The translations under genes were made by a program, and so were the position numbers. Below are positions 1-48,102 of a stretch of 64,000 nucleotides of DNA, in pieces. Each line of letters starts with the position of its first letter. The first letter of the stretch is position 1. The stretch is from Balanoglossus misakiensis (taxonomy: Eukaryota > Animalia > Hemichordata), in contig CM082591.2 of NCBI GenBank assembly GCA_040954595.2, positions 7,616,047 to 7,680,046 on the forward strand. The letters run 5' to 3'. The notes beneath the pieces are model-generated. The model saw nothing but the letters and a program-made list of their open reading frames with translations. It was not told the DNA's origin and made no database searches.

Positions 1-3000
1 CCATACCTCCTGGTTCTTTAAACTTTCGCCCTGGCTTTGGACTTTGGCCATCCAGTGTCCTCAATGACCAGTGACCTGTTAGGTGAAACAACGGTCAAAG
101 GTCAAACATGCTATATTGCAATGCATTAGGAATATGCTTGAGTTAGTGTTTTATTGTTCATTTTAACAAGAGAAAACATATTACAAAAGAAACGAATCAT
201 TGCTATGACAACTGAACTACTAAGGGGTAGTTTTTCTACACAATGTTTACAGTGACAAATAACCATGGCAACCAGAGTAACCATGACTTTCTTGAACTAT
301 TTCTTTTTCTCTGCAATATAGCTAGGAGGAAATTTACTTTGTCTCTTTTTGATATTATAATATACATAAAAGACTATCTTATTTAACCATTCAATAGATA
401 TACTATCGTTGATGTTGCCATGGTAACACATTCAAAGAAATCAGTTCAAAAATAATCTTTTACTTGTAACTTTTGACTCAGTAGACATTTCATAACAATT
501 CTTGAACTGAGTTTCAGGGATAATTCTTTGGTCCATTATTTTTAGGAAAAAATGTATGATGGTAGCATTATTGACTGGTAACCATGACAACTGAACCTCA
601 ATGTATTTTGTAAAACATTGGCAATGTGCTAAAGTTAGTGTTTTAATTTAACTTTAAACCTTTTTTTTTTACAAATTTAGCGAGTTATTGCCATGATATA
701 TTTCTGCCAAAGTACTCTATATGTACACATTTTCCAATACCAAGTAACCATGGAAACTGGACAAAATGTTAATATCAGTTAATAATTCTATTTTTGAAAA
801 CAAGTAGCAGAAATATTACCTGAAATTATCACTTTATTTATGGTCTTTGTAACCCATAAAAATGTTCCTATTCAACTGCTCAATGGATTTAGTGACAGTA
901 TTGTTGTCATGGTAACACATCTTAACAGATCAGTACAGGAATAATCTTTGCCTTGTAATTTTGGAATTAGTAGGTCTTACATAAAAATTCTTGAACAATG
1001 TCTCAAGGATCATTGCCTACCTTATACTTGTAGCTTTTCAAACCAGGGCAACAAGACAAACATCAATTTCTGAAACTATTTCTATTGCTTTGCAATATAA
1101 AGAAAAAAGCTATCTGTCATTTTATTGACAGACTATTATAATACAAAGTATTTCTAACTTTATATACTATCTGTAATGTTGTTGTGCCAAAGATTTTGTT
1201 TCTTTTTCCAGCCAACCAGAGATGGTCTGCTTTTCAATCAGTAATTGTCATATTGGTGAACAGAGAAGAATTATCTACTCCTTAGCCGAGAGGGCTGGTA
1301 CTTTCTTTGACCAGGTGAGTATTTTTGTGAATAAACCCTTGAGAAAATTATTGGTGTAAACCTTTCTAACTTTAAGTTTAAAGAATTTATTGGAAAGTAA
1401 AATGTATTGTTGGAAATTTAGTGATATATTTTTTTGCAAGAATATACCCTAACCACTTATATAGTGACATCATTGCAGATGATCTGAGAGATGGAAAACC
1501 TGCAGTTACTTAGGATGAGTCATGATAAATAGTCTGTCTCAACACCACTGGCTGTTCCAGATTGTCACTTGGATAAAAAATTGGTAAGTTCCTAATTTGA
1601 ATTGCCTTTTTTGATTATTTATAATCATAACAAAATTAAAGTTTCTTGATATTGTGGAATATCTACATATGACAATTCCAAAGTCAAATGAAGAAATTGA
1701 ATGATTGTAGCTAGTGGTTGAAATTGTAGAAATTGAGCATTTTCACCCTGGACCAGAGTTGTTTTATTTCTGGCCACTGTAACAAAGAGTGAACCTTTCA
1801 CCCCTTTCTGTTGCATATGGATTCAACCATACCAATCAAAACAGAGGGTTGAACCACTGTTCTGTTTTATATTGCTTTATGCTGTCTGTGTCTGCCAGTA
1901 ATCAGCCTACTTGTACATTGGACATTTACACACAAATTGGCTCATAGCTTTTCTTTTTTCTATTCTGGCACACCTTGATGCTCCATCAAATGCTCTTGCA
2001 GAATTGATCATAACAATCTCATCCACATGATATTGATATTGAGTCAATATCTGCACGCATTTTGATGTTTCTAATTTACAGACAAAAGTCTTCATCAATG
2101 ACCAGACAGCCAATCTATTCTTGCAAAGAATACAAAGTTGAATTCAAAGATGACAAGGTTGGTATCTTCTGACGTTACTTTGTTTATGTTTGATCAAGTG
2201 AAAAGTTTCTTATAATGATTTTGAACTCTCTGAATTGTTGGTGACCAGACCTCTATTCTCATCTTGCCTCATACTTGTAAAAATTTGCGTTGTGATGTCA
2301 AGGTTTCTGGTAAGTGCCATAAATGTTATGTCATCAAGTTTTCTTATATTATACATTTACACACAATGCAGTTTGGTGGTACCGGTAGAAGTCTGGCAAC
2401 CAATGATTCAACATTTACTTGAAGTTTTGAATCAACTGATCCCTTATTATCAACACATGTATTCAACTTATTTTCCAACACTGAGAATGCACATACCTGT
2501 TTTAGAAGGTTTTGCTGAAACACTGGCTCCCTTTGTATCCTCAGATATCTCTTTACTTCCTGTAGTGGAGAGATGTCTTAGACATTAATTTTACAATGTA
2601 CTTGAAGTTTTGAATCAACTGATCCCTTATTATCAACACATGTATTCAACTTATTTTCCAACACTGAGAATGCACATACCTGTTTTAGAAGGTTTTGCTG
2701 AAACATTGGCTCCCTTTGTTTCCTCAGATATTTCTTTACTTCCTGTAGTGGACAGATGACTTAGACATTAATTTTACTTGAAGTTTTGAATCAACTGATC
2801 CCTTGGTATCAACACATGTATTCAACTGTTATTTTCTAACACTGAGATGAAATGCACATACCTGTTTTAGAAGGTTTTGCTGAAACACTGGCTCCCTTTG
2901 TACCCTCAGATATCTCTTTACTTCCTGTAGTCCCTGAATCACCAGCAGTTTCTTTACTTCCACCAAAAGATCTCCTAATCTTGCTGATGACACCTTTGGA

Positions 3001-6000
3001 TTGCTTTTCTTCTGCAAAAGAAAGTGATCAAACAATGAAAATATAGTATAATAATAATAATAATTTATTTATATAGCGTCAGTATCCACAAAAAATGTGA
3101 TCAATGACGCTAAAAGCAAAAGTAACACTACAACAAATGGCTAAAAAGCAGATTTAAAAAGTAAAGTTTTAATATTTGATTTAAAAACAGATAAGTCTGG
3201 TGCCTGGAGAATGTTGAGTGGAAGATTATTCCAAAGAATTGGAGCAGCAACAGTAAAAGCATGATCACCATAACTCTTGGTGCGTGATCGAACAGGGCAG
3301 CTCAGTTTGAACTGATCAGCTGACCTTAAATTGCGACACGGAACATATAGTTTAGTCATGTTAGAAAGATAGATTGGACTAAGTGTATGAATGGATTTAA
3401 AAATGAGAACTAACATCTTAAAAACAATACGCTCTGTAACAGGTAGCCAGTGCAACTGATACAAAATTGGAGTGATGTGACAGGTGATTTTTGAACGAGT
3501 AACAATTCTAGCAGCAATATTCTGAACGCGTTGGATACGGTTGATTGAATACTTCGGGAGCCCAAATAAAAGTGAATTACATGAATCAATTCGAGAAGTA
3601 ATGAATGCATGAACTAATTGCTCTGTAGCAGATTGAGATAAATATTTGCGGATAATCGCAATGCGACGTAAATGAAAAGTGGCAGAGCGGCAGATCTGTC
3701 CAATATGTGGCTTCATTGTCAGACAAGAGTCAAGGATCACTCCAAGGCTCTTAGCCTGACAATGGACGGGAATCAGAGCATCGCCAACACGAATTTCTGA
3801 AATCCCTCTAACAGACAGATCACCCGAAGTACCAGAGAAATAACAAATTCAGTCTTATCATCGTTTAAGCACAAGAAGTTTTCAGACATCCAAAACCTAA
3901 CATCGGATATACAAAGTTCAAGATTCAAAACAGTTCTTGCTGCGTTGTCTTTACTAAAAGACATATAAAGTGAAGAGTCATCTGCATAAAAACTATAAAG
4001 ACAACCATGACTTTGAACTAATTCACCTAATGGAGACGTGTACATATTGAAAAGTATGGGACCAAGAACTGATCCCTGTGGTACCCCAGTGTCGAGTGGA
4101 TAGAAAGGTGATTGGGTGGAATTTACAAGTACACACTGACTACGATAGTGCTGTCAATTAATCTGATTACGTTTGGCTGATATTTAATAGAATGATTTCT
4201 TATTTCTTATGGGATATCTCATTTTCCTCTGTTAAGAATATACCGGGTACTGCTTTCCAACATCAGATTGAATCATTTGGCCAACATTGAATGTTTACTC
4301 ATCTCATTGGATATCTGTGACTGATTTTTCACTATCAAGAATACTAGTATACTATACCATGCTTTCCAACATCAGATTGATGTAAATGTAGTTCCAACTT
4401 TCTAAGTTTGTTATTGACATGTTTTACTGGTGTACCTTTTTCCTTTGTCTTAAATTGTTTTGCTTTGGTTTTCTCTGTCTCAGTTCCATCTCCTTCCGTC
4501 ATCTTGGCCACAGCCTCAGTGTCTTCTTTTCCCATTGTCTCTGGTTGTGGATGTCTGGCTTTCTCTGCTCCTGTTTCTTCTGATGCCATCTCAGGTTGCA
4601 CAGTTGCTGGTTTCACATCTTTTGTAGCCATGGTTACAGGCGATATGTCTCCTGTGTCATCTTTCTTGAGAGGCACATCAGATGGTGTGAGTTTGCCTAC
4701 AAATATTTGTAATTAAATGGTAAGTACTTGGTTATAATTCTTACAACAATGAAAACTTGCATTTTTTTATAATCTATATGAGCTGGAAGATTTTTCTTGA
4801 TGCAGGAATAATCGAAGCAGATTTATATCAATCTCACCTTGTTCAGTTTCCAATTTTGCATCTTCTTCCAGTTGAAGAGTTTTAGCAGTTTTCAGTTGCA
4901 GCTCAGTGTCAGATTGATCATCCTGGATTTTGGATAATTTTGACTTTAGCTCAGTTATGGTTTGTTCTTGTTGTTCAAGTTTAGATTGTAATTCTTGGAT
5001 GTGTCTAGGGTCTGATTCTCTCAATCTTTGCTTCAGGGAAATGACATCCATAAGTTGTGTGGCGGCTACTTTCTCAACACTTGCAAGTTTCAGTTTGTAC
5101 TGCTCTTCTAAGAGTGACTTTTCCTGAAGTGCTTCTTTCAACTGATTCTCTAGAATCATTTTCTCTGTCTGCAGTTTAGTGATTTCTCCAACTAGCTTTC
5201 TCTTATTCTCAACTGACTCAGTCTGCAGTTTAGTGATTTCTCCAACTAGCTTTCTCTTATTCTCAACTGACTCAGTCTGCAGTTTAGTGATTTCTCCAAC
5301 TAGCTTTCTCTTATTCTCAACTGACTCAGTCTGCAGTTTAGTGATTTCTCCAACTAGCTTTCTCTTATTCTCAACTGACTCGGTCTGAATTTTGGACTTC
5401 TCTGTCAGGGCCCCATCCAACTGTTGTTTTAGTTCTTTGAGCTGCTTTGCACTAGCTTCAAAGGGCAGTAAGCTTTTTGCTTGTAAGCTGATAGATTCAG
5501 CTGGTATGGGATGAATTGGTCTGCCATGTAGTGTGATTTCATCTGCCAAATCTGAAATGAAAAAGAATAAAGCTATGAAGCTCAATTTTGTCATTTCTCT
5601 GTTTGGAACTATTTCTAAGACATGTCATGTGTGTGTCAACACACTCCCAGCCTAATTCTTTGTTATGAACGTTGTTAGAGCCATTCGTTTGCTGGGAATT
5701 GCCTTGATACACAAAATCAGGTTTTTAGTCTTGGCACATCCGGCCCTTATCAGATCAAGCTGGTGATGCAGAAACAACAAATGGTGCATGTGTGTAGAAT
5801 ATTATTTTTACTGGACAACCCATAACCAGATATGACTACAACAAAAACATTCTTACGTTATCCCTGTGGTTAAAAAAAGTCAGGGCATTATATTAATCAA
5901 ATTTGTGTCGATTTGGATATAGCTTTCAACAAACTTTTTAAAGATTTCACCTGTCCCGATCTGGCATTTGTGACAGTCGGAAAGTTAACACAAACATCAA

Positions 6001-9000
6001 TTAAAATTTCTGAATTTTTATGACACCTTAAGTGCAGCATGCAAATGTAATGTATCATTATTCCTTTCAAAATTGTGGCCAATGTGATCCAACCAAAATA
6101 TCTGCTGTTGTTTTGTTTGATTATTATTCATATCTGGATCAGAGAAGTTAAAAGATTAACCATGCAATGTGGACTAAAATCCCATAAATGACCAGTTCTT
6201 GACCAAATTAAATCACTTACTTTGTTTCATGGCAGCCTCTTCAATGTCAGAATCTTTTTCTGTTTCCTCCCCTGGTGAAGTCAGGCGTGTTCTCTCAATC
6301 TAAAATTGAAACAAATGAATATATCAAATCCAAATCTAGATGAATTTCAATAGACAGTCATAGTGCAAATCAAATATTTGAGCCATGCAAGAGTTTATCC
6401 CAGTGATGTTGTTAAGAGTTCCCAGAAAGAAACAGCCAAACAATTACAATATCCTTCTCACAGCCATATCAGCTGGGCATCAATCAACATGTAAACGTCA
6501 CTGAAAATAGTAAAGACTTATTTACTATTTGGAAATTTCCCTGCGTGTGTGAAGTTGTGGACAAAGTATGCTGTTGAACATAGCTACATGTGTTGTAGGG
6601 ACATTAGCTGTAAAACTGGCTTCATTTTCGGTATTTTTGTTCTGTGTACCAAATTCAATTTCTTGTCCTACTACAAACAGCAAGGTACTCAGTACTCAGC
6701 TTGTCAAGATATCCTGTATGTGTGTAACAACCATTGTTATTATTGACAAATAAATTCTAGTCCGGACTTGAATTCAAATTTTGCATCATAACAGTGCTGA
6801 TACACATATATGTTGCATTGATAAGCTAAATGCTGGGCATTACAACTAACATCTAAGCATACCTGATTCAGTATTTCATCAACACTTCCCTCTTCTACGT
6901 TGTCACCATATAATTTCAATGGTCCTATTCCCCCACCATCTCCTGAAAGTTAGTAAAATATTCAATGGATTTTGATTTGCATAATTTTATTTCTCTGAAA
7001 GTTTCTTGGGGTTAAAAAAATTTGCAATGCATGAAACTTAAATTATCTTATATGAGTCACAGCTCTAACAAGTTTCATTTTATAGAAATGTAAAATAACA
7101 AACTTCTTAATCAAATCTTATTCTTAATCATAATCTTAATCTGTCACCTGTGTTAATTCAGTATTAAGTATAATTTTCTCCTTCCTCCAAGTGATCAATC
7201 CACACTCTCTTATTCTTTGAATTTGTATTGTTTCTTGGTTGAATCAATATATAGTTTTACGGCAAACCATCTCATCTGACAAGAAAAACTTACTGTTCAG
7301 AAAGAATAGTTCCAGTTCATCAAACCTGGCTTGGTCATATGTTGCTGTCAACTGTAGTGGTATTCCAGCTGTGTTGGCCTCTGTCATTTCATCTGTCATC
7401 AAGATTGGTTCTAATGCCTTGGCTAAACTTCTTGAATCTTCAAGACAGCTTCCCCGCAATCGGTAGAGATTATAAAGTCTACGCATGTTGGCTGTGATTT
7501 GCAGAGACCCTGATTTCATACTGGTTATTTCCACTTCACCCAAATTCTCAGTGCAGACTTTCTTGACTTTCTCAGTGTCATCACCATTGGATACCACATC
7601 AGATGCTCTTCTCTTCAACTGTTGTTTGCAGTTGTTCCAAGCTGTAGATGCTGCCTGTTGCCTTTCCTCATTCTGGCCCTCATTTTCTGCTCGATGTTGC
7701 TGATAGGCAGTTTCATCCAGTTGGGCATGAACTTGAATTGTTGTGTCGGCATGATGATCTGAAGATTTTAGGAAATGGGGCAATACTAAACTCAATCTAA
7801 GACAAAATAATGAGTACGCTTAATTTATCGCCACCCTGGAAAACCATAAGTCATACGGTTTTTGTTAAACTCCGTCTCCCAAGAAAAAAACTTAAATTTG
7901 TAGGGCTTCAAAAATATGTATTGTGGGAAAATCAACAATATATAACCTCACTTGCACTAAACTAAGTTGACTAGTACAGGTACTAAGCACAACAGTTAGA
8001 TTATACAATTACGCAGATGGCCATTGAAAAGTCAATGGGTCAAGGACCTTTACTTTAAGTCTAGGAACATTTTAATCTTGTCAACAGGCGCCACCAAGAA
8101 AGTTGTTTTTATTAATAATTTTGAAATTGTCTCCTACCTGCTGTATTTCTTGTGTCCTTGCCACATGGATCAACTCCTTCTTGTTCCCTCATTCGGTCTG
8201 GTGTCAATAAACTGGCAAATGTGGCATAACTCTTATCAACATCTTCACTCTCCATGAAAGCCTTCTTCAGCTCCTTAGCTTCTTCAAAAGCTAACCTGGT
8301 CTTCTTGACACTCCATATTATCTTCTCTGAAATCTTATCAGATGAGTGTGACACTACAAATTTGTCTGCGTGGTATGGAAAGTATTCCTTGACTAACTCC
8401 CCAAGCTGGGAATATTCATCAGGATAGGTTGGTAGTCCAACTGCTATAGATTCTAAACCGCTATACGGATAGTCCTTGTAGACAGAGACGGGAAGACAAC
8501 TGTGAGATTGTTGAAGTGATGTTGGCAGAGTGCTTGCTGAGTAACCTGAGTAGAGTGTAGGGGTGACATGACTACTCTTCATCTGGTCTTGAAGATGCTC
8601 CAGTTCAGCCTTACCTGCTTGTGGAGAAGCTCCTTGTATTGACCACTTAGGAGGTTTGTGGGAAACATCTTTCAGCTTTTTTGATGCACTTCCAATAGCA
8701 GCTGCCAGTGTCTCACACCTGTCCAAGGCTTCTTGTGTATCAATTTGGCCATACGTCAGTATGTTGTGTGTAGTGACTTTGTCTGGTATGGTTGGGTCTT
8801 TTCTGAAAAAGACTTCTGCAGGTCTGGGGAAAATCTCTGCATGAGGGATCTTGAAAAGTTGCTTTCCAGAATATTCTGCTCGGTATTGGTTTTCAAAGTG
8901 TGCGAACATGCTTGGACCAATTGAAAATATGAGGTCAGCTTCACTGGCCAGCTTTAGCATCATTTCACTAAACTTCCCTGGAGGTAGTTTCAACAGACAG

Positions 9001-10274
9001 TTGCCTTCTTCATAGGCATGGTTGATCATTACAAGTTTTGCATCAGGAAACAATTTTTTTCTGATATTTGCAGCAGCAAATCCAGTTCTTGGAGCATAAC
9101 CAACAACATATTTGATGTTTTGTAGCTGTCTGAGGTGAGGGTAGTAGATTTCATGATATTTCGTCAACCATTTTAAATGTGGCTGATCATCTTCTGGCTC
9201 TGCAGTTCTGTCTTCTTCTTGTTGTTGTGCTGGAATCAATTTAACCCGACACTTGGCAGCATCTGCCTTCTGGTCGTCACTGACTTTGACACCAACAAAT
9301 GTGGAGTAGGCGTTAACAGGTGTTTCTTCTTTGACTTTTCTTGCAGAGAAATCTTGTACAAGAGTTCTGTGAAACCCAGTCAAGCCACAATCTTCTTTGT
9401 TCCAGTCGTCATACACAAATAATACGCCAGGAGGTGGATCTGGAAGATGGAGTTGATGAAGTTTGGCTTCAGGGAAGAGACTTTCGTGGATTGCTTTGGC
9501 TGCATTCTGTGTCTTTGGAGAATATCCGACTACATGTTGGATGTTTGTCAGTTCCTTCAGTCCAGGGAAGTATGTATCATGGTGAACAAGCCAGTTTATT
9601 ACAGGGGGGTCTTCATGAGGATCCAATCTCTTGTCTCTTACAGCTGGGATCAAAGTAGCACCAACACTCTCTGCATCTTTCTTTTGTTCTTCACTCACTT
9701 CAACTTCAAGGGTAGTACAGTTGAATTCAGAAACTTCATCTGGCTTCAGTTTTTCTTCTCGAAATTCAGTGACAAGTTTGTTAGTTGGTGTTGTTGTCTG
9801 ATCTTCTGATTCTGTCTGCCAGGTTTGCATGACCATTAATGCTGCCACAGGTGGTGGGTCAGGAAGACTGAGTTGGTAAAGTTTGGCTTCAGGGAAGAGA
9901 CTTTCATGAATTGCTTTGGCTGCAGTGTGTGTCTGTGGAGAATATCCGACTACATGTTGGATGTTTTGCAGCCCCTTCAAGTCTGGGAAGTATGTACCAT
10001 GGTGAACAAGCCAGTGTACTCCAGGGGGGTCTTCATGAGGATCCATCCTCTCGTCTCTTATAGCTGGGATCAAAGTAGCATCAACACTCTCTGCATCTTT
10101 CTCTTGTTCTTCACTAACTTCAACTTCAAGGGTAGTACACAGGAATTCAGAAACATTCTCAGACTGGAGTGTGTTTTCTTTGAGATGTTTGATTATAGCT
10201 TGAGTTGGTTGGGAGGTTTTTGCCTCCTTGTCCCATGATTTCAATACAACCAGTGCTGCAGATGGTTCTGACAT
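1..10274 (-). CDS. Paralogue A (3' end runs off the window): GT half-domain repeats + GT4-like glycosyltransferase + TRADD-N-like + coiled coil + NHL protein. Predicted exons 10274-8138, 7758-7294, 6942-6863, 6299-6221, 5551-4838, 4696-4436, 3011-2862, 2742-2680, 2559-2497, 75-<1
   Basis: Every predicted intron has GT..AG ends and compatible phases (1,1,0,1,1,1,1,1,1). Exons coincide with ORFs 8112-10274, 7244-7795, 4767-5594 and 4344-4676. Near-identical to copy B. The last exon starts GHWSLRTLDG, as the NHL exon of copy B does. Confidence 0.85.
2405..2935. repeat. Three ~180-bp tandem units, each ending in the same exon 3' end and donor (two units in copy B, about 34920-35265)
   Basis: Recurring gaagttttgaatcaactgatccc...cacatacctgttttagaaggttttgctgaaac...cttcctgtag. 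Confidence 0.9.
3048..4145 (-). mobile_element. 5'-truncated L2/CR1-group LINE fragment in an intron of copy A
   Basis: GVPQGSVLGP at about 4060-4090, YADD motif, C-terminal HITPILYQLHWLPV...APILWNNLP, and a (TAT)n tail at about 3050. Confidence 0.9.
5166..5387 (-). repeat. Four perfect 54-bp coding repeats (TESVENKRKLVGEITKLQ) in the coiled-coil exon; single unit in copy B
   Basis: Visible in the DNA and in ORF 4767-5594 (275 aa) versus ORF 37096-37761 (221 aa). Confidence 0.95.
8138..10274 (-). CDS. Large exon of copy A: two ~140-aa repeats followed by a GT-B (GT4-like) domain
   Basis: 720-aa ORF with the repeated core TTLEVEVSEEQxKDAESVxATLIPA...HVVGYSP, which is homologous to the core domain's STFVGVKVSDDQKADAAKCRVKLIPA...YVVGYAP. 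C-terminal SGLESIAVGLP. Confidence 0.85.
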
Positions 10275-10424: not shown

Positions 10425-10470
10425 GATTGGCTAACCAAAATGAATATGCATAAGATGGCATATATAAGGG
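10425..10470 (+). promoter_or_regulatory. Putative Pol II promoter in repeat A (reverse CCAAT 'gattgg' and TATA 'tatataag')
   Basis: Motifs are conserved in A1 and in A2 (about 27199-27242). Confidence 0.4.
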
Positions 10471-15921: not shown

Positions 15922-16007
15922 TATGGGGTGAGAACACCGCCAAAAATAGCTTATGTCTTTATTTGGTAGTTTTCTCATCATTATTATGTTATTATGTCAT
16001 TATTTGG

Positions 16008-26580: not shown

Positions 26581-26660
26581 ATAATAACATAATAATGATG
26601 AGAAAACTACCAAATAAAGACATAAGCTATTTTTGGCGGTGTTCTCACCCCATACACTGC

Positions 26661-26820
26661 TTCATATTACATGCAAATGTCTAAAGTCATGCTCCCATTC
26701 TCTCCCGCGGTACGACTACAACAAGAGGCAGTGGCAGATGTACACGGTGTATATAAAACATGTAACGAACTAAAGGGGGCCTCAGTGGCTTTCCCCTCGA
26801 CGGAGAATAAGTTTCAATAG
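26661..26820 (+). pseudogene. Tyrosine recombinase 3' part carrying the predicted catalytic Tyr
   Basis: Removing 15922-26660 restores HVGWSQESTASYYMQMSKV...NKFQ*. Confidence 0.88.
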
Positions 26821-31769: not shown

Positions 31770-32587
31770 TTATGTCTGCTTGTAGAATACTTTGATTTGG
31801 TGGCTGTTCAACTCTCCAACAGCAATTCTGTCACCGCTGACTGCAAGGAACCAAGGGCTACTCACCTCCCCTTCAAATAAGTGACAGATCCACTCTCCAT
31901 CAAATCTCCATTTCACAATCCTATGATTCAACAAATCACACACAAACAAATTATCGTCGTCATCGACGTCAATGCTGCGTGGCCACAACAGCTGACCAGG
32001 ACCTGAACCATACACACCAAATTGATACAAGAATTTCAATTCAGCATCAAAACACTTGATGCAATGATTGTCACCGTCAGACACCATGATGACATTCTTA
32101 CTGTTGACCACCACAAAGAATGGCCTATTGAATTGTGTTTGGCCAACACCTTGACCACCAACCTCTGCAACATACTGACCATCTTGGGTGTACTTGAGTA
32201 GCCGATGACCTTCGACCTCAGTGACCAAAACAAATCCATTCAGTAGAGCGATGCCCCTGACATCGACGCCTGCAGGTAGAATAATTATTCTAAGAATTTT
32301 ATTGTTTTGATCACAAACAACAATTTGAGAGTTTCCACCATCACTTATGAAGTAGATGTTGTCATGGGAGACAGCTACATCCCGTGGCTGGAATGGCTTT
32401 GCAAACTGACCATCAAAACTTCCCAAGACTTTGTCACAGGTGTAATCTTGATTCAGTATCTGTACAACCCTGTTGCCTCGGCCACACACCACCAGTTTGT
32501 CACCATGGAACACCATACCTCTTGGGTTTTTAAACTTTCGCCCTGGCTTTGGACTTTGGCCATCCAGTGTCCTCAATGACCAGTGAC
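31770..32587 (-). CDS. Terminal exon encoding a six-bladed NHL-repeat beta-propeller (TRIM2/3/71-type NHL)
   Basis: Repeats FKNPRGM, FQPRDVAV, DVRGIAL, FNRPFFVVV, LLWPRSIDV and VSSPWFLAV, with D-x-x-N-H-x-I motifs and G-x-G-x-G-Q turns. Confidence 0.9.
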
Positions 32588-35500
32588 CTATTAGGTGAAA
32601 CAGAGGTCAAAGGTCAAACATGTTATACCCTATTGAAATGCATTAAGAATATGCTAGAGTTAGTGTTTTATTGTTCATTTTAACAAGAGAAAACATATTA
32701 CAAAAGAAACGAATCATTGCTATGACAACTGAACTACTAAGGGGTAGTTTTTCTACACAATGTTTACAGTGACAAATAACCATGGCAACTAGAGTAACCA
32801 TGAGTTTCTTGAACTATTTCTTTTTCTCTGCAATATAGGTAGGAGGAAATTTTCTTTGTCTCTTTTTTGACAGCTTTATTATAATATACATAAAAGACTA
32901 TCTTATTTAACCATTCAATAGATATACTATTGATGATGTTGCCATGGTAACACATTCAAAGAAATCAGTTCAAAAATAATCTTTTACTTGTAACTTTTGA
33001 CTCGGTAGACATTTCATAACAATTCTTGAACTGAGTTTCAGGGATAATTCTTTGGTCCATTATTTTTAGGAAAAAATGTATGATTGTAGCATTAGTCACT
33101 GGTAACCATGACAACTGAACCTCAATGTATTTTGTAAAACATTGGCAATGTGCTAAAGTTAGTGTTTTAATTTAACTTTAATTAAACCTTTTTTTTTTAA
33201 ATTTAGTGAGTTATTGCCATGATAGATTTCTATACTCTATATGTACACATTTTCCAATACCAAGTAACCATGGAAACTGGACAAAATGTTAATATCAGTT
33301 AATAATTCTATTTTTGAAAAACAAGTAGCAGAAATATTACCTGAAATTATCACTTTATTTATGGTCTTTGTAACCCATAAAAAATGTTCCTATTCAACTG
33401 CTCAATGGATTTAGTGACAGTATTGTTGTCATGGTAACACATCTTAACAGATCAGTACAGGAATAATCTTTGCCTTGTAATTTTGGAATTAGTAGGTTTT
33501 ACATAAAATTCTTGAACAATGTCCCAAGGATCATTGCCTACCTTATACTTGTAGCTTTTCAAACCAGGGCAACAAGACAAACATCAATTTCTGAAACTAT
33601 TTCTATTGCTTTGCAATATAAAGAAAAAAGCTATCTGTCATTTTATTGACAGACTATGATAATACAAAGTATTTCTAACTTTATGTACTATCTGTAATGT
33701 TGTTGTGCCAAAGATTTTGTTTCTTTTTCCAGCCAACCAGAGATGGTCTGCTTTTCAATCAGTAATTGTCATATTGGTGAACAGAGAAGAATTATCTACT
33801 CCTTAGCTGAGAGGGCTGGTACTTTCTTTGACCAGGTGAGTATTTTTGTGAATAAACCCTTGAGAAAATTATTGGTGTAAACCTTTCTAACTTTAAAGAA
33901 TTTATTGGAAAGTAAAATGTATTGTTGGAAATTTAGTGATATATTTTTTTGCAAGAATATACCCTAACCACTTATGTAGTGACATCATTGCAGATGATCT
34001 GAGAGATGGAAAACCTGCAGTTACTTAGGATGAGTCATGATAAATAGTCTGTCTCAACACCACTGGCTGTTCCAGATTGTCACTTGGATAAAAAATTGGT
34101 AAGTTCCTAATTTGAATTACCTTTTTTGATTATTTATAATCATAACAAAATTAAGGTTTCTTGATATTGTGGAATATCTACATATGACAATTCCGAAGTC
34201 AAATGAAGAAATTGAATGATTGTAGCTAGTTTTTGAAATTGTAGAAATTGAGCATTTTCACCCTGGACCAGAGTTGTTTTATTTCTGGCCACTGTAACAA
34301 AGAGTGAACCTTTCACCCCTTTCTGTTGCATATGGATTCAGCCATACCAATCAAAACAGAGGGTTGAACCACTGTTCTATTTTATATTGCTTTATGCTGT
34401 CTGTGTCTGCCAATAATCAGCCTACTTGTACATTGGACATTTACACACAAATTGGCTCATAGCTTTTCTTTTTTCTATTCTGGCACACCTTGATGCTCCA
34501 TCAAATGCTCTTGCAGAATTGATCATAACAATCTCATCCACATGATATTGATATTGAGTCAATATCTGCATGCATTTTGATGTTTCTAATTTACAGAAAA
34601 AAGTATTCATCAATGACCAGACAGCCAATCTATTCTTGCAAAGAATACAAAGTTGAATTGAAAGATGACAAGGTTGGTATCTTCTGATGTTACTTTGTTT
34701 ATGTTTGATCAAGTGAAAAGTTTCTTATAATGATTTTGAACTCTCTGAATTGTTGGTGACCAGACCTCTATTCTCATCTTGCCTCATACTCGTAAAAATT
34801 TGCGTTGTGATGTCAAGGTTTCTGGTAAGTGCCATAAATGTTATGTCATCAAGTTTTCTTATATTATACATTTACACACAATGCAGTTTGGTAGTACCGG
34901 TAGAAGTCTGGCAAACAATGATTCAACATGTACTTGAAGTTTTGAATCAACTGATCCCTTATTATCAACACATGTATTCAACTTATTTTCCAACACTGAG
35001 AATGCACATACTTTTTTTAGAAGGTTTTGCTGAAACACTGGCTCCCTTTGTATCCTCAGATATCTCTTTACTTCCTGCAGTGGAGAGATGACTTAGACAT
35101 TAATTTTACTAGAAGTTTTGAATCAACTGATCCCTTGGTATCAACACATGTATTCAACTGTTATTTTCTAACACTGAGATGAAATGCACATACCTGTTTT
35201 AGAAGGTTTTGCTGAAACACTGGCTCTCTTTGTATCCTCAGATATCTCTTTACTTCCTGTAGTCCCTGAATCACCAGCAGTTTCTTTACTTCCACCAAAA
35301 AATCTCCTTGTCTTGCTGATGACACCTTTGGATGGCTTTTCTTCTGCAAAAGAAAGTGATCAAACAATGAAAATATAGTATAATAATAATAATTATTTAT
35401 TTATATAGCGTCAGTATCCACAAAATATGTGATCAATGACGCTAAAAGCAAAAATACAATACAACAAATGGCTAAAAAACAGATTTAAAAAGTAAAGTTT

Positions 35501-38500
35501 TAACATTTGATTTAAAAACAGATAAGTCTGGTGCCTGGCAAATGTTGAGTGGAAGATTATTCCAAAGAATTGGAGCAGCAACAGTAAAAGCACGATCACC
35601 ATAACTCTTGGTGCGTGATCGAACAGGGCAGAGTTTGAACTGATCAGCTGACCTTAAATTGCGACACGGAACATATAGTTTAGTCATGTTCGAAAGATAG
35701 ATTGGACCAAGTTTATGAATGGATTTAAAAATGAGAACTAACATCTTAAAAACAATACGCTGTGTAACAGGTGGCCAGTGCAACTGATACAAAATTGGAG
35801 TGAGTAATGTGACAGGTGATTTTTGAACGAGTAACAATTGTAGCAGCAATATTCTGAACACGTTGAATACGGTTGGTTGAATACTTCGGGAGCCCAAATA
35901 AAAGTGAATTCGAGAAGTAATGAATGCATGAACTAATTGCTCTGTAGCAGATTGAGATAAATATTTGCGAATAAGCGCAATGCGACGTAAATGAAAAGTG
36001 GCAGAGCGGCAGATCTGTCCAATATGTGGCTTCATTGTCAGACAAGAGTCAATGATCACTCCAAGGCTCTTAGCCTGACAATGGACGGGAATCAGAGCAT
36101 CGCCAACACGAATTTCTGAAATCCCTCTAACAGACAGATCACCCGAAGTACCAGAGAAAATAACAAATTCAGTCTTATCATCGTTTAAGCACAAGAAGTT
36201 TTCAGACATCCAAAACCTAACATCGGATATACAAAGTTCAAGATTCGAAACAGTTCTTGCTGCGTTGTCTTCACTAAAAGACATATAAAGTGAAGAGTCA
36301 TCTGCATAAAAACTATAAAGACAACCATGACTTTGAACTAATTCACCTAATGGAGACGTGTACATATTGAAAAGTATGGGACCAAGAACTGATCCCTGTG
36401 GTACCCCAGTGTCGAGTGGATAGAAAGGTGATTGGGTGGAATTTACAAGTACACACTGACTACGATAGTGCTGTCAATTAATCTGATTACGTTTGGCTGG
36501 TAATGGAATGATTTCTTATTTCTTATGGGATATCTCATTTTCCTATGTCAAGAATCTACCGGGTACTGCTTTCCGACATCAGATTGAATCATTTGGCCAA
36601 CATTGAATGTTTACTCATCTCATTGGATAGACTGTGACTGATTTTTCGCTATCAAGAATACTAGTATACTATACCATGCTTTCCAACATCAGATTGATGT
36701 AAATGTAGTTCCAACTTTCTAAGTTTGTTATTGACATGTTTTACTGGTGTACCTTTTTCCTTTGTCTTAAATTGTTTTGCTTTGGTTTTCTCAGTCTCAG
36801 TTCCATCTCTTTCCGTCATCTTGGCCAAAGCCTCAGTGTCGTCTTTTCCCATTGTCTCTGGTTGTGGATGTCTGGCTTTCTCTGCTCCTGTTTCTTCTGA
36901 TGCCATCTCAGGTAGCATTGATGTTGGTTTCACAGGCTCATCTTCATCTTTTGTAGCCATGGTTACAGGTGATATGTCTCCTGTGTCATCTTTCTTGAGG
37001 GGCACATCAGATGGTGTGAGTTTGCCTACAAATATTTGAAATTAAATGGTAAGTACTTGGTTATAATTCTTACAACAATGAAAACTTGCATTTTTTTATA
37101 ATCTATATGAGCTGGAAGATTTTTCTTGATGCAGGAATAATCGAAGCAGATTTATATCAATCTCACCTTGTTCAGTTTCCAATTTTGCATCTTCTTCCAG
37201 TTGAAGAGTTTTAGCAGTTTTCAGTTGCAGCTCAGTGTCAGATTGATCATCCTGGATTTTGGATAATTTTGACTTTAGCTCAGTTATGGTTTGTTCTTGT
37301 TGTTCAAGTTTAGATTCCAACTCTTGGACGTGTCTAGGGTCTAATTCTCTCAATCTTTGCTTCAGGGAAATGACATCCATAAGTTGTGTGGCGGCTACTT
37401 TCTCAACACTTGCAAGTTTCTGTTTGTACTGCTCTTCTAAGAAGGACTTTTCCTGAAGTGCTTCTTTCAACTGATTCTCTAGAATCATTTTCTCTGTCTG
37501 CAGTTTAGTGATTTCTCCAACTAGCTTTCTCTTATTCTCAACTGACTCGGTCTGAATTTTGGACTTCTCTGTCAGGGCCCCATCCAACTGTTTTTGCAGT
37601 TCTTTGAGATGCTTTGCACTAGCTTCAAAGGGTAGTAAGCTTTTTGCTTGTAAGCTGATAGATTCAGCTGGTATGGGATGAATTGGTCTGCCATGTAGTG
37701 TGATTTCATCTGCCAAATCTGAAATGAAAAAGAATAAAGCTATGAAGCTCAATTTTGTCATTTTTCTGTTTCGAACTATTTCTAAGACATGTCATGTGTG
37801 TGTCAACACACTCCCAGCCTAATTCTTTGTTATAAACATTGTTAGAGCCATTAGTTTGCTGGGAATTGCCTTGATACACAAAATCAGGTTTTAAGTCTTG
37901 GCACATTCGGCCCTTATCAGATCAAGCTGGTGATGCAGAAACAACAAATGGTGCACAGTGTAGAATATTATTTCTACTGGACAACCCATAACCAGATATG
38001 ACTACAACAAAAACATTCTTACGTCATCCCTGTGGTTAAAAAAAAAGTCAGGGCATTATATTAATCAAAATTGTGTCGATTTGGATACTTTCAACAAACT
38101 TTTTAAAGATTTCACTTGTCCCGATCTGGCATTTGTGACAGTCGGAAAGTTAACACAAACATCAATTAAAATTTCTGAATTTTTATGACACCTTAAGTGC
38201 AGCATGCAAATGTAATGTATCATTATTCCTTTCAAAATTGAGGCCAATGTGTTCCAACCAAAATATCTGCTGTTGTTTTGTTTGATTATTATTCATATCT
38301 GGATCAGAGAAGTTATAACCATGCAATGTGGACTAAAATCCCATAAATTACCAGTTCTTGACCAAATTAAATCACTAACTTTGTTTCATGGCAGCCTCTT
38401 CAATGTCAGAATCTTTTTCTGTTTCCTCCCCTGGTGAAGTCAGGCGTGTTCTCTCAATCTAAAATTGAAACAAATGAATATATCAAATCCAAATCTAGAT

Positions 38501-41500
38501 GAATTTCAATAGACAGTCATAGTGCAAATCAAATATTTGAGCCATGCAAGAGTTTATCCCAGTGATGTTGTTAAGAGTTCCCAGAGAGAAACAGCCAAAC
38601 AATTACAATAGCCTTCTCACAGCCATATCAGCTAGGCATCAATCAACATGTAAACGTCACTGAAAATAGTAAAGACTTATTTACTATTTGGAAATTTCCC
38701 TGCGTGTGTGAAGTTGTGGACAAAGTATGCTGTTGAACATAGCTACATGTGTTGTAGGGACATTAGCTGTAAAACTGGCTTCATTTTCAGTATTTTTGTT
38801 CTGTGTACCAATTGCAATTTCTTGACCTACTACAAACAGCAAGGTACTCAGTACTCAACTTGTCAAGATATCCTGTATGTGTGTAACAACCATTGTTATT
38901 GTTGACAAATAAATTCTAGTCCGGACTTGAATTCAAATTTTGCATCATAACACATATATGTTGCATTGATAAGCTAAATGCTGGGCATTACAACTAACAT
39001 CTAAGCATACCTGATTCAGTATTTCATCAACACTTCCCTCTTCTACGCTGTCACCATATAATTTCAATGGTCCTATTCCCCCACCATCTCCTGAAAGTTA
39101 GTAAAATATTCAATGGATTTTGATTTGCATAATGTTATTTCTCTGAAAGTTTCTTGGGGTTAAAACAATTTGCAATGCATGAAACTTAAATTATCTTATA
39201 TGAGTCACAGCTCTAACAAGTTTCATTTTATAGAAATGTAAAATAACAAACTTCTTAATCAAATCTTAATCATAATCTTAATCTGTCACCTGTTTTAGTT
39301 CAGTATTAAGTATAATTTTCTCCTTCCTCCAAGTGATCAATCCACACTCTCTTATTCTTTGAATTTGTATTGTTTCTTGGTTGAATCAATATAGTTTTAT
39401 GGCAAACTATCTCATCTGACAAGAAAAACTTACTGTTCAGAAAGAATAGTTCCAGTCCATCAAACCTGGCTTGGTCATATGTAGCTATCAACTGTAGTGG
39501 AATTCCAGCTGTGTTGGCCTCTGTCATTTCATCTGTCATCAAGATTGGTTCTAATGCCTTGGCTAAACTTCTTGATTCTTCAAGACAGCTTCCTCGCAAT
39601 CTGTAGAGATTATAAAGTCTACGCATGTTGACTGTGATTAGCAGAGACTCTGATCTGATATTGGTTATTTCCACTTCACCCAAATTCTCAGTGCAGACTT
39701 TCTTGACTTTCTCAGTGTCATCACTGTTGGATACCACATCAGATGCTCTTCTCTTCAACTGTTGTTTGCAGTTGTTCCAAGCTGTAGATGCTGCCTGTTG
39801 CCTTTCCTCATTCTGGCCCTCATTTTCTGCTCGATGTTGCTGATAGGCAGTTTCATCCAGTTGGGCATGAACTTGAATTGTTGTGTCGGCATGATGATCT
39901 GAAGATTATAGGAATTGGGGCAATATTAAACTCAATCTAAGACAAAATAATGAGTACGCTTAATTTATCGCCACCCTGGAAAACCATAAGTCATACGGTT
40001 TTTGTTAAACTCCGTCTCCCAAGAAAAAACCTTAAATTTGTAGGGCTTCAAAAATATGTATTGTGGGAAAATCAACAATATATAACCTCACTTGCTCTAA
40101 ACTATAGTTGACACTTATACTGGTAGTACAGGTACTAAGCACAACAGTTAGATTATGCAATTACGCAGATGGCCATTGAAAAGTCAATGGGTCAATGTCC
40201 TTTACTTTAAGTCTAGGAACAATTGAACCTTGTCAACAGTCGCCACCAAGAAAGTTGTTTTTATTAATAATTTTGAAATTGTCTCCTACCTGCTGTATTT
40301 CTTGTGTCCTTGCCACATGGATCAACTCCTTCTTGTTCCCTCATTCGGTCTGGTGTCAACAAACTGGCAAATGTGGCATAACTCTTATCAACATCTTCAC
40401 TCTCCATGAAAGCCTTCTTCAGCTCCTTAGCTTCTTCAAAAGCTATCCTGGTCTTCTTGACACTCCATATTATCTTCTCTGAAATCTTATCAGATGAGTG
40501 TGACACTACAAATTTGTCTGCGTGGTATGGAAAGTATTCCTTGACTAACTCCCCAAGCTGGGAATATTCATCAGGATAGGTTGGTAGTCCAACTGCTATA
40601 GATTCTAAACCGCTATACGGATAGTCCTTGTAGACAGAGACAGGAAGACAACTGTGAGATTGTTGAAGTGATGTTGGCAGTGTGCTTGCTGAGTAACCTG
40701 AGTAGAGTGTAGGGGTGACATGACTACTCTTCATCTGGTCTTGAAGATGCTCCAGTTCAGCCTCACCTGCTTGTGGAGAAGCTCCTTGTATTGACCACTT
40801 AGGAGGTTTGTGGGAAACATCTTTTAGCTTATTGGTTGCGCTTCCAATAGCAGCTGCCAGTGTCTCACACCTGTCCAAGGCTTCTTGTGTATCAATTTGG
40901 CCATATGTCAGTATGTTGTGTGTAGTGACTTTGTCTGGTATGGTTGGGTCTTTTCTGAAAAAGACTTCTGCAGGTCTGGGGAAAATCTCTGCATGAGGGA
41001 TCTTGAAAAGTTGCTTTCCAGAAAATTCTGCTCGGTATTGGTTTTCAAAGTGTGCGAACATGCTTGGACCAATTGAAAATATGAGGTCAGCTTCACTGGC
41101 CAGCTTCAGCATCATTTCACTAAACTTCCCTTTTGGTTGTTTGAACAAACAGTTGCGTTCTTCATAGGCATGGTTGATCATCACTAGTTCTGCATCAGGA
41201 AACAATTTTTTTCTGATATTTGCAGCAGCAAATCCAGTCCTCGGAGCATAACCAACAACATATTTGATGTTTTGTAGCTGTCTGAGGTGATGGTAGTAGA
41301 TTTCATGATATTTCGTCAACCATTTTAAATGTGGCTGATCTTCTTCTGGCTCTGCATTTCTGTCTTCTTCTTGTTGTGCTGGAATCAATTTAACCCGACA
41401 CTTGGCAGCATCTGCCTTCTGGTCGTCACTGACTTTGACACCAACAAATGTGGAGTAGGCGTTAACAGGTGTTTCTTCTTTGACTTTTCTTGCACAGAAA

Positions 41501-42843
41501 TCTTGTACGAGAGTTCTGTGAAACCCAGTCAAGCCACAATCTTCTTTGTTCCAGTCGTCATACACAAATAATACTCCAGGAGGTGGATCTGGAAGATGGA
41601 GTTGATGAAGTTTGGCTTCAGAGAAGAGACTTTCATGAATTGCTTTGGCTGCATTCTGTGTCTTTGGAGAATATCCGACTACATGTTGGATGTTTGTCAG
41701 TTCCTTCAGTCCAGGGAAGTATGTATCATGGTGAACAAGCCAGTGTACTCCAGGGGGGTCTTCATGAGGATCCATCCTCTCGTCTCTTACAGCTGGGATC
41801 AAAGTAGCATCAACACTCTCTGCATCTTTCTTTTGTTCTTCACTCACTTCAACTTCAAGGGTAGTACAGTGGAATTTAGAAACTTCATCTGGCTTCAGTT
41901 TTTCTTCTCGAAATTCAGTGACAAGTTTGTTAGTTGGTGTTGTTGTCTGATCTTCTGATTCTGTCTGCCAGGTTTGCATGACCATTAATGCTGCCACAGG
42001 TGGTGGATTGGGAAGTTGGAGTTGGTGAAGTTTGGCTTCAGGGAAGAGACTTTCTTGAATTGCTTTGGCTGCAGTGTGTGTCTGTGGAGAATATCCGACT
42101 ACATGTTGGATGTTTTTCAGTTCTTTCAGCTTTGGGAAGTGGATACTGTGGCTGGCAAACCAGTGTACTCCAGGGGGGTCTTCAGAAGGATTCAACCTCT
42201 CGTCTCTTATAGCTGGGATCAAAGTAACATCAACACTCTCTGCATCTTTCTCTTGTTCTTCACTAACTTCAACTTCAAGTGTAGTACAGTACGATTGAGA
42301 AACTTTCTCTGACTTCAGGGTTTCTTCTCGAACTTTTGTGACAAGCTGATGAGTTGGTGTTGTTGTCTGATCTTCTGATTCTGTCTGCCAGGTTTGCATG
42401 ACCATTAATGCTGCCACAGGTGGTGGATTGGGAAGTTGGAGTTGATGAAGTTTGGCTTCAGGGAAGAGACTTTCTTGAATTACTTTGGCTGCTTTGTGTG
42501 TCTGTGGAGAATATCCGACTACATGTTGGATGTTTTTCAGTTCTTTCAGTCTAGGGAAGTATGTATCATGGTGAACAAGCCAGTGTACTCCAGGGGGGTC
42601 TTCATGAGGATCCAATCTCTTGTCTCTTACAGCTGGGATCAAAGTAGCATCAACACTCTCTGCATCTTTCTCTTGTTCTTCACTAACTTCAACTTCAAGG
42701 GTAGTGCAGAGGAATTCAGAAATGTTCTCAGACTGGAGTGTGTTTTCTTGGAGATGTTTGATTATAGCTTGAGTTGGTTGGGAGGTCTTTGCCTCCTTGT
42801 CCCATGATTTCAATACAACCAGTGCTGCAGATGGTTCTGACAT
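31770..42843 (-). CDS. Paralogue B, complete, about 1677 aa: 3 GT half-domain repeats + GT4-like domain + TRADD-N-like + coiled coil + NHL beta-propeller. Predicted exons 42843-40290, 39898-39434, 39090-39011, 38458-38380, 37718-37167, 37025-36753, 35343-35194, 35074-35012, 32587-31770
   Basis: Exon lengths 2554+465+80+79+552+273+150+63+818 = 5034 nt form one open frame with GT-AG splice sites. Motifs include ADLIFSIGP and SGLESIAVGLP (GT-B), SESLLITVN (TRADD-N-like) and F-x-x-P-x-[GD] NHL blades. Confidence 0.85.
35378..36465 (-). mobile_element. Same L2/CR1-group LINE fragment in copy B
   Basis: Same insertion site with different frameshifts/indels, so it inserted before the duplication. 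Confidence 0.9.
40290..42843 (-). CDS. Large exon of copy B: three 420-bp (140-aa) repeats followed by a GT-B (GT4-like) domain
   Basis: 859-aa ORF. Antisense shadow ORFs start at 41596, 42016 and 42436, exactly 420 bp apart. Confidence 0.85.
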
Positions 42844-44864
42844 ATTTATATTCCTGCTGGGAAGAAATATATAGTACAGGGGTACAGTTGAATGTAAACA
42901 TAAGACTTTGACTATCTGTATGTAAGCAAGCCCTTGAAATACTTGTCAACATGTACCGTATGTTGACGACTCTTTCTAGAAAGGAATTCAATTGTATTTC
43001 TTAATTGATCACCAATATTGTGCAGTAAATACCTGTCACTTGAAAGAATTTGTATTTCAGTTAAAACAAATTTGTTATTATGAGAAGTCGACCAGTGGTT
43101 GTGGTGATGATGTGAGGGTGTGTCATTTGTATCACTTTTTAAAGAATGAACAAATTAAATGCAGTTCCTTCAGTGGATGTAGGGTATATGTGATGTGACA
43201 CCGTATTACAGACAGCTCCCTAAAGGTCAAATGAGGTGTAAAACCAGACCACAACATGTACGATTAAATATTAACCTTACTCTGCATGATAGTATCATGT
43301 GTACGTATTGATTGATAGAAAAGTTGGAGCTTAATAATTAAAGACAGCTCCCTAAAGGTCAAATGAGGTCACAGTCTGTGTAAAACCAGACCACAACATG
43401 TACAATTAAATAAGGGTTAACCTTACTCTGCATAACCATGTCTTCGTATTGATTGATAAAAAAGTTTGAGCTTAATAATCATAATTGCGCGGCCTTAAAA
43501 AACAAATTGTCTCAATCTTACAGTTGTCGACAGAATTTCAAAGTAGAGTTATAGTCGAATTTTATTTAGATAGAATTCAGTCTGTGATGCCAACAAAGAA
43601 TTTGAAGACATTGAATTTGAGGGGTAGACGGCTGTTGAAATGGTCACTTCTGTCAATAAAATACTCTACCTACTTCAGTCTGTAAAAAAGTGGACAATTT
43701 CTCACAAGAAATGGCTTTGTTTCTAGGAACCTTACACTTTATAAATGCACAATCTCCACAAACTGTCATGAAACTAAGATAGTGCTCACACACGAGGCAA
43801 AATCATCTCTATGAGTTTGGTTCTATAGGCTTTACGTGAGTACTGCGTGTGGTTGTCATGTGATACCTGTTGTTGTACACCAAAAAAAACGAGAACATAC
43901 AGTTAATATTTTGTATGCCCTATAGCATTACTGCATTGGTGAAAATAATTGTCCCTTTTATGATTATTGCTAATGAAGTTGTTTACATTGATGAATCATA
44001 GACGTTGTTTAGTCTCCGATTAATTCAAATCAAGAAAAGTGTAGTGACTTATTTTCAGTAGAATTCTGTTTAGGATGTGTTTCTGTTATATGAAGAAATT
44101 GTTGAGTTTCGTCCATGGGCCGGTGCACAATTCTTCTTGCTCTAATAATATGATAAAAGAAAAATTTAAATATTGCGACCACAGAGGTAATATCGAGCAC
44201 TAAAAATTAAGTATGCTAATGAGCGCCAGTCGGCGTATTGGTTAGTCTCATGTTGTCTCGTGAGATCTCTCTCTCAACTCTCGTTGCCTCGTGTTGTTGC
44301 ATTCATAACGTTATTCCGTTCACGTAAAAGACTTCGCGTTTTTTACGTGGAGATAGGTGTTTTTACGTTAGTTGCAAACGTGAAAAAGTTTCTTATTTTG
44401 GGCAACAAAAAATCATATTATCTACGAAATATGTGTATGCCTTGTTAGCTTGATATCTCATTGTAACAAACGCATTTATTTCTTTTTAGTCATTTTATGT
44501 GAAATTTGGTCATCAATTTGTATGGTCGCCCGATGTTTGAATCCATAGTTGCAGTGCAGCGACACGGTGTAACGATGTACACGCTCAAAATTCGAATCCA
44601 TAGTGCGCGTGCCACACAAACAGACGTTGACATGAAGCCAAACTCTTTTCCACCCGAACGTCTAACGCGAACGCGAACGTGGGTTCTACGCGTCCACATT
44701 CACGTAAAACGTGTAGCCGAACCTGTCTATTGAGACCGCCATCGACATTGATCCTGTTCGCACATACTGTGTCAACACCAAACAATCTCCATATGTCAAA
44801 GCCTTTTACCGCCATCACCCATTACGACTGACATTAGACACAGGAGCGGAGACAAACATGATAA

Positions 44865-47675: not shown

Positions 47676-47883
47676 AGGGGAAATCCAGCCTAGCTGATTT
47701 CTACATAATTTGGTAGCTTTGAGGTCACTCTTTCAGAATAAAACATATTCGCCATGTATATTAGTCTCGCGATTTTTTACAGAATCGAGGGAAAGTTGGC
47801 AGAATTTCCAATATGGCGTTTACTGTAATTTGAATCATGGGAAAAAAGCGCCAGGACCCACTTCCGCCCACCAGCGTGGTTAA
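47676..47883. mobile_element. Truncated Kolobok-like insertion in the Gypsy pol
   Basis: Starts TTAA-AGGGG and is flanked by cagcgt(a/g)gttaa. The pol frame resumes as [11 protein letters not shown]. No right TIR. Confidence 0.5.
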
Positions 47884-48102
47884 GCACCCAATCAGAGTGT
47901 CCGGATCTTTGTCGTGTTCACGCTCACCTATCACAGGGAACGCGACCATCTAAGAAACTCACTAACATCAAGGATGTGAAGAGATACCTCGGCGTCACCA
48001 CTATAGCAAAAAACGGAATGTTAGTAGTCAAACACAATGCCCCTTTTTGCCCAACACAAGATTTCATCGTTGTTCCCAGAGCCGTTCTTGATGGTCTATT
48101 AA

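Follow-up and report, generated by a model that had tools for sequence, protein, structure and literature searches.

What kind of protein would carry a glycosyltransferase (GT) fold at one end and an NHL propeller at the other, joined through a likely TRADD-N domain and a likely coiled coil? The question is raised by a predicted nine-exon gene (copy B, 31770..42843, minus strand) in a 64,000-nt stretch of the genome of the hemichordate Balanoglossus misakiensis (contig CM082591.2, positions 7,616,047 to 7,680,046), referred to here as the window. The answer favored by the evidence, at a probability of roughly 55%, is that the gene encodes an intracellular immune receptor of the published GT4-TRADD-N class, in which the NHL propeller would sense, the coiled coil and TRADD-N domain would cluster and signal, and the GT would bind rather than catalyze. 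This reading draws on sequence comparisons and structure models.

As proposed in a preliminary description of the locus, the nine exons join in phase into a single frame. They lie on the minus strand at 42843-40290, 39898-39434, 39090-39011, 38458-38380, 37718-37167, 37025-36753, 35343-35194, 35074-35012 and 32587-31770, every intron between them runs from GT to AG, and the coding sequence of 5034 nt specifies 1677 aa plus a stop codon with zero internal stops. Exon 1 (aa 1-851) encodes three copies of a GT N-lobe (41581..42843, aa 1-421) followed by a full GT-B domain of the GT4-conflict type with an eroded donor site (40339..41580, aa 422-835), and exon 2 (aa 852-1006) encodes the likely TRADD-N domain, whose first strand is followed by a long helical insertion. 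Exon 3, a linker that starts at the junction FFLN/RDGGG, and exon 4, an acidic linker, lead into the likely coiled coil of exon 5 (aa 1060-1243). Exons 6 and 7 are of low complexity, exon 8, 63 nt long, repeats the end of exon 7 and can be included or skipped without loss of frame, and exon 9, entered in phase 1, encodes the NHL propeller (aa 1406-1677), recognized by Pfam and by alignment. The frame is thus real in the sequence and reads as one gene, with its predicted splicing resting on homology.

The tandem duplication reported in the preliminary description is also borne out. Copy A (1..10274, minus strand) is about 96% identical to copy B, has the same orientation, begins with an ATG at 10274, keeps all the splice sites of copy B and is open to the window edge, which it crosses 75 nt into its NHL exon. 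Relative to copy B it has two N-terminal repeats rather than three, four units of a 54-nt coiled-coil repeat rather than one, and the 63-nt exon twice. Indels between the copies are divisible by three in 5/5 cases in exons and in 6/24 cases in introns, indicating that the reading frame is kept more than by chance. Crude ratios of nonsynonymous to synonymous differences (pN/pS) between the copies, based on few changes, are 0.24-0.31 for the GT, 0.24-0.36 for the GT lobes and coiled coil, 0.55 for exon 2, 0.69 for the N-terminal repeats and 1.45 for the low-complexity linker. In both copies a polypyrimidine-CAG acceptor lies 10-13 nt 5′ of the ATG (42843-42875 and 10274-10302), and the similarity between the copies stops there; retention of this AG in both makes an unseen 5′ exon, untranslated or coding, likely. 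In the window, neither an exon upstream of this acceptor nor a DED exon was found.

Three word-limited homology searches, the third covering 1326-3785 aa and returning Ptychodera flava in 19/19 cases, gave 45 homologue clusters, all of them RefSeq models from P. flava (for example P0012, XP_070561900.1, and P0002, XP_070557111.1) named either ‘uncharacterized’ or after low-complexity look-alikes. Seventeen clusters, corresponding to 16 genes (P0026 is an isoform of P0002), combine the GT, exon 2 and NHL modules in one chain in the same order as the window protein. The other 28, which lack NHL, comprise GT, exon 2 and coiled coil (11), GT and exon 2 (9), GT only (7), and GT and coiled coil (1); many of the shorter models end in repeats and may be truncated. 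Identity to the window protein is 45-54% in the GT, 39-52% in exon 2 and 51-65% in the NHL. The splice junctions find their counterparts here, in that the exon 2/3 junction is unbroken in 5/5 P. flava proteins aligned, NHL homology in these five begins at the start of exon 9, isoform breakpoints coincide with the exon 5/6 and 6/7 junctions, and isoform P0026 skips the stretch that matches exon 6. With their differing tails and repeat numbers, the 45 clusters agree with the earlier suggestion of an expanded, variable family.

A more trivial explanation of the locus would be that the GT part and the NHL exon belong to separate genes, or that copies A and B represent two haplotypes of a single locus, placed in tandem by the assembly. 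The NHL is absent from 28/45 P. flava models, the RefSeq models are themselves predictions, and intron divergence between A and B is just 2.2%, a value within the allelic range of marine invertebrates. However, exon 9 lacks an independent start, the phase of its acceptor fits, and GT and NHL are joined in 17/45 relatives, two of which have several annotated isoforms. The upstream flanks of A and B, moreover, match only in short patches at 77-89%, unlike alleles, which favors true paralogues without proving them. We therefore consider an artefact of either kind improbable.

The enzyme-like part of the protein was assigned by a Pfam scan of five of the nine exons, the other four being linkers of 21-50 aa. 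Exon 1 matches the GT4-conflict family PF20706 in four stretches (E 3.6e-44; 151.7 bits against a curated cut-off of 26), and the scan gave no Glycos_transf_1 match at E≤0.1. The label first given, GT4 in the sense of Glycos_transf_1, accordingly holds for GT4 as GT4-conflict and fails for Glycos_transf_1. The predicted GT-B fold is supported by a complete two-lobed structure model (predicted local distance difference test score, pLDDT, 84.6) whose nearest neighbors are GT4 enzymes both by Foldseek (BshA, E 6e-12) and by VIA (Z 28.4, root-mean-square deviation (rmsd) 3.7, 365 aligned); a sequence search of the PDB with the GT returned nothing significant (best E 0.047 and 0.12). The first 421 aa repeat the N-lobe of the GT (strands 1-5) three times, in units of 139-140 aa with a period of 420 nt that are 33-37% identical to the N-lobe of the GT domain and 70-77% identical among themselves. 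Such extra N-lobes number three in copy B, two in copy A and in three P. flava relatives, and one in most P. flava relatives. The final ~306 nt of the repeats are 89-93% alike across both copies and their first part differs (41577-42709 and 9428-10165), suggesting unequal crossing-over or conversion between repeats.

The donor site was compared with that of an intact Rhizobium plasmid protein found by tblastn (PF20706 E 3e-68), which has the motifs GG, GR..K and EGFG..E. According to the available text of PMC8760489, the first Glu of the EX7E motif contacts the donor sugar and the second the ribose, and the Arg and Lys contact the pyrophosphate; GG belongs to the 85-90% consensus of the GT4 alignment in the accessible parts of PMC8195603. 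The window protein has C436 in place of Gly, Q649 in place of Arg, K739 in place of Glu and P742 in place of Gly, its GG loop reading C436-G437 and its EX7E loop starting K739-D-Y-P742, and it keeps E747 and H558 and has R658 at the Lys position. Residues C436, Q649, R658, K739, P742 and E747 are identical in copies A and B. A tally over 38 of 43 relatives (leaving out P0012-P0014, which have two N-lobes, isoform P0026 and P0033, which has two GTs) found the canonical residue at the first Gly of GG in 0/38, at the Arg in 0/38, at the first Glu of EX7E in 1/38 and at the loop Gly in 2/38. Mean identity among 12 relatives is 50% in the C-lobe, the least conserved module, and 67% in the N-lobe, the reverse of the pattern that active GT-B enzymes usually show. 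PF13692, a donor-lobe family, is matched by 3/43 relatives, compared with 100% of the members of the two nearest cnidarian Atlas clusters. Since four donor-site residues are lost and lobe conservation is reversed, the GT is likely not a normal enzyme, catalysis having probably been lost or much altered.

The same receptor could instead have a GT that is active through a rebuilt donor site, in which D740 stands in for the lost Glu and the donor or acceptor is unusual; invader or host molecules would then be glycosylated on NHL binding, and the additional N-lobes would supply further sites for acceptor binding. An active effector is the model put forward both in the preliminary description and, as far as its available text goes, by Kaur et al. 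(PMC8195603), and the complete GT-B model with its Z of 28 to GT4 enzymes agrees with it. Several further observations speak for activity and so weigh against a GT that only binds. H558, Y738, D740, Y741, G745 and E747 are nearly invariant among the relatives; the second Glu of EX7E is kept in 38/38 and the His at H558 in 37/38, an acid (D/E) stands one place past the lost first Glu in 38/38, and Arg or Lys occupies the Lys position (R658) in 21/38, in a register taken from a distant alignment. Some GT4s can dispense with one Glu of EX7E, according to the accessible part of PMC8760489, and the pN/pS of the GT fits a constrained domain whether it is an enzyme or not. The motif comparison itself relies on a bacterial comparator and, among animals, on Ptychodera sequences, and the EX7E-loop register is reproduced by a gapless glycogen synthase match that is weak (E 0.047). 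Yet the four canonical positions, the pyrophosphate Arg and GG among them, are lost together in the window protein and almost throughout its relatives, divergence is faster in the donor lobe than in the acceptor lobe, and some relatives have still more decayed GT copies. P0033, for example, has two GT-TRADD-N-like units, and its N-terminal GT is the more decayed in the EX7E loop. An active effector of this kind therefore seems rather unlikely to us, and the claim first made for it is not supported at this gene.

Exon 2 is likely a TRADD-N domain, as judged from its structure model (pLDDT 90). With VIA, TRADD-N ranks first of 48,161 entries (Z 5.8, rmsd 4.2, 109 aligned), and with Foldseek it has the highest probability (0.91). 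By eye, exon 2 resembles the published TRADD-N alignment in its strand-GS-strand hairpin and the two successive helices that come after it; the turn is GS in copy A and ES in copy B, and these elements are present in the model. Against this assignment, the next VIA entries, SEA-like and RRM-like folds, lie within 1 Z of TRADD-N, the Foldseek hit is second by rank with a moderate E of 0.033, and exon 2 has no TRADD-N match in Pfam at E≤10, in a Pfam set that perhaps holds no invertebrate TRADD-N model. An Atlas search with exon 2 gave zero usable matches, and an exon-2 profile touched a typical-looking TRADD-N stretch in P0033 at E 0.76, which was not counted. Weak NCBIfam/Pfam matches of exon 2 to DUF4659 and LegC3 were dismissed as helical noise. 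A coiled coil in exon 5 is likewise likely, the evidence being weak Pfam matches below cut-off, a hydrophobic period peaking at 3.6 and a homologous stretch in P. flava. Both modules had been anticipated in the preliminary description, and both survive as probable assignments.

Between the exon-2 domain and the coiled coil, 8/44 P. flava relatives have an unnamed, alpha/beta-looking domain of ~110 aa (P0050 636-760; also P0022, P0031, P0006, P0004, P0037, P0033 and P0040), to which Pfam gave zero matches. The window gene retains just the C-terminal end of this domain, at the start of exon 5. A tblastn search of plasmids with P0040 found nothing.

The presence of an NHL module is confirmed by exon 9, a complete propeller in one exon (PF01436, E 7.5e-20) whose closest solved domains are those of TRIM71 (E 8e-40), Thin and TRIM2/3 (range E 1e-40 to 1e-29). 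In an alignment of 13 rows (12 relatives with near-full modules and the window protein), mean entropy is 2.06 bits at 30 top-face positions, which flank the blade motifs; 222 other positions average 0.87 bits and 36 positions in the bottom loops 1.07. The choice of the top-face positions post hoc from the alignment weakens this contrast as support for a sensor. In zebrafish LIN41, 14 RNA-contact residues are named in the available text of PMC5908797, and by hand count in the 6fpt alignment 14/14 of them sit at variable motif positions of the NHL. The ligand face is thus hypervariable among the relatives and looks like that of a diversified sensor.

The history of the NHL also differs from that of the rest of the chain. 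In the GT and exon-2 trees the window protein groups with P0012 and P0018 (99/97), and the NHL tree disagrees. Approximately unbiased (AU) tests on the NHL data rejected 3/3 GT-tree clades (p-AU 0.0001, 0.007 and 0.02); the clades were chosen after both trees had been viewed and two NHL branches are long, which counts against the strength of the rejection. Tails other than NHL, namely TPR in P0004 and NB-ARC with TPR in P0011, are attached to GT domains that nest within the NHL-bearing set, the NB-ARC match being weak (E 2e-4, below cut-off) and found in 1/45 relatives, and P0049 has an N-terminal DED. By the evidence of trees and tails, the NHL is a swappable one-exon cassette that has been exchanged among relatives.

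These data also bear on a non-immune role, in which the protein would be a TRIM71- or Brat-like RNA-binding NHL regulator or a scaffold, expanded developmentally or neutrally in a transposon-rich region. The closeness of the NHL to TRIM71, Thin and TRIM2/3 and the presence of 7 Arg/Lys among the 30 top-face positions of the window protein agree with such a role. It accounts poorly, however, for a ligand face that varies among paralogues, for a tail exchangeable with TPR and NB-ARC-TPR and for a relative with a DED, and RING, B-box and filamin domains are all absent from the exons scanned; we regard it as quite improbable. The variable face together with the TPR, NB-ARC-TPR and DED modules of the relatives instead suggests that the immune role with NHL as sensor, as first proposed, is probable.

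How might a receptor of the GT4-TRADD-N class with a non-catalytic GT work? Inspection of the sequence, made with no predictor, revealed no evident signal peptide or membrane segment, and the protein would probably reside in the cytosol. A foreign RNA or protein ligand would bind the top face of the NHL at the end of the flexible linker, the coiled coils would gather several chains, and TRADD-N would bridge to Death-fold adaptors, recruiting signaling partners. The GT fold with its stacked N-lobes would provide avidity for a conserved partner or a sugar-phosphate, with no sugar transfer.

A broader possibility, which we put forward tentatively and hold to be somewhat doubtful, is that in acorn worms a GT4 effector of bacterial origin became a pseudo-enzyme module of a receptor, giving an animal NLR-like family with an integrated pseudo-glycosyltransferase and a two-headed sensor. 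If so, shuffled NHL and TPR cassettes would read variable ligands at one end, the stacked GT N-lobes at the opposite end would sense sugar-phosphates or serve as an integrated decoy, and output would pass through TRADD-N with no nucleoside triphosphatase (NTPase) switch; in this view the donor lobe has decayed, and the acceptor lobe has been conserved and multiplied. Apart from this possibility, the one-exon NHL cassette, exchanged among paralogues and hypervariable on its ligand face, is a candidate for a diversified repertoire of receptors in a deuterostome that lacks adaptive immunity.

The locus lies among mobile elements. Intron 6 contains a broken reverse transcriptase (RT) of the long interspersed nuclear element (LINE) type (35472..36473, minus strand) that is common to both copies and outside the protein, and the C-terminal end of P0037 is a LINE RT, which the gene model may have picked up from an intron. 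Upstream of copy A, a DIRS/Ngaro-like tyrosine-recombinase retroelement at 10332-27492 has an RT, an ALOG domain and split direct repeats (10407-10522 / 27181-27296 and 27112-27182 / 27409-27476). It is flanked by two TACCGGTA sites, lies ~45 nt upstream of the acceptor of the first coding exon of copy A and may affect expression of that copy. Nested in its recombinase gene is a 10.7-kb foldback-like element (15922-26654) with a 6-bp target duplication, CACTGC, and inverted arms of ~1 kb that are 99% complementary and built from a 43-nt minisatellite open in several frames. It encloses a tandem array of 1.3 kb and another inverted pair (24152-24327 / 25054-25229), and part of it recurs at 50927-52953. 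Upstream of copy B lie broken elements at 45811-49684 (+), 58085-61620 (+) and 56748-57372 (-), which include a broken retrotransposon pol of the long terminal repeat type with RT and RNase H, a LINE RT that is likewise broken and a short fragment that by eye is transposase-like. In bacteria, a Rhizobium plasmid (L001 3755-7696) encodes a ‘cobalamin-dependent protein’ in which an intact GT4-conflict domain is fused to B12-binding and radical SAM domains, adjoining an integrase and an IS3 transposase.

The preliminary description knew of no characterized protein with this architecture; the literature does hold a precedent for it. GT4 is placed before TRADD-N in cephalochordates, hemichordates and cnidarians, in predicted counter-invader proteins with GT4 as the proposed active effector and leucine-rich repeats as the usual tail, in the available parts of Kaur et al. 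2021 (PMC8195603). The supplement of that paper has at least one entry with GT4, TRADD-N and a beta-propeller (Branchiostoma belcheri XP_019644604.1, 1071 aa, propeller type unstated) and also lists GT4, TRADD-N, coiled coil and AIG together; the term ‘NHL’ is absent from the main text and the two architecture supplements searched. The window gene probably belongs to this predicted immune class, the GT4-TRADD-N proteins of the DEDD2 clade, with which it shares GT4-conflict, then a likely TRADD-N, then a variable C-terminal repeat module, as well as a hemichordate host, lineage-specific expansion and a retrotransposon-rich setting. Unlike that class as described in the accessible text, the acorn-worm subfamily shows erosion of the donor site and one to three additional N-lobes; its likely TRADD-N domain carries a helical insertion, and its NHL tail occurs in an expansion of at least 16 genes. 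A literature search across listings and the openings of abstracts found no description of the acorn-worm family, its eroded GT4 sites or its N-lobe repeats; new here are the erosion of the donor site, the multiplication of the N-lobe and the expansion of an NHL cassette whose face is hypervariable. Within the subfamily, the P. flava proteins share the module order and motif erosion of the window protein, differing in that they usually have one extra N-lobe rather than three and longer repeat linkers, and some carry TPR, NB-ARC-TPR or DED modules, or an additional domain ahead of the coiled coil.

The TRIM-NHL proteins (TRIM71/LIN41, TRIM2/3, Thin, Brat) share with the window protein the NHL propeller type and a coiled coil upstream of it, and the preliminary description had taken the gene for a TRIM-NHL protein with its RING and B-box swapped out. 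No RING or B-box was found by Pfam on the five scanned exons or by a six-frame motif scan of 10300-31700 and 42900-64000, filamin gave zero matches in the scanned window exons or the relatives, and a low-complexity linker precedes the NHL. The coiled coil lies at least 160 residues from the NHL and travels with the GT-exon-2 chassis in 11/45 relatives that have no NHL, and the ligand face is diversified here and conserved in TRIM-NHL proteins. Because RING, B-box and filamin are missing and the coiled coil is part of the GT chassis, derivation from TRIM-NHL fails, a conclusion shared by the separate phase-1 NHL exon and the discordant trees.

Cnidarian GT-NLRs, reportedly described by Hamada et al. 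in 2013 as GT4 joined to NACHT and leucine-rich repeats, likewise combine an N-terminal GT4-conflict domain with a C-terminal repeat sensor. The window protein differs in having no NTPase switch, neither a NACHT nor an NB-ARC NTPase being present in it, as had been noted for NACHT at the outset. The Atlas clusters nearest to the window protein are cnidarian GT4-conflict clusters (score 0.98-0.99), all of which match Glycos_transf_1, unlike the window protein. GT4 domains have expanded in immune-type proteins of corals, amphioxus and acorn worms as predicted enzymatic effectors, the coral expansion being noted in the available parts of PMC8195603. Against these the acorn-worm subfamily forms a natural contrast, with the GT fold intact, the donor site eroded and the acceptor lobe multiplied, so that whether GT4 is a weapon or a binding module can be tested directly against intact cnidarian or bacterial relatives.

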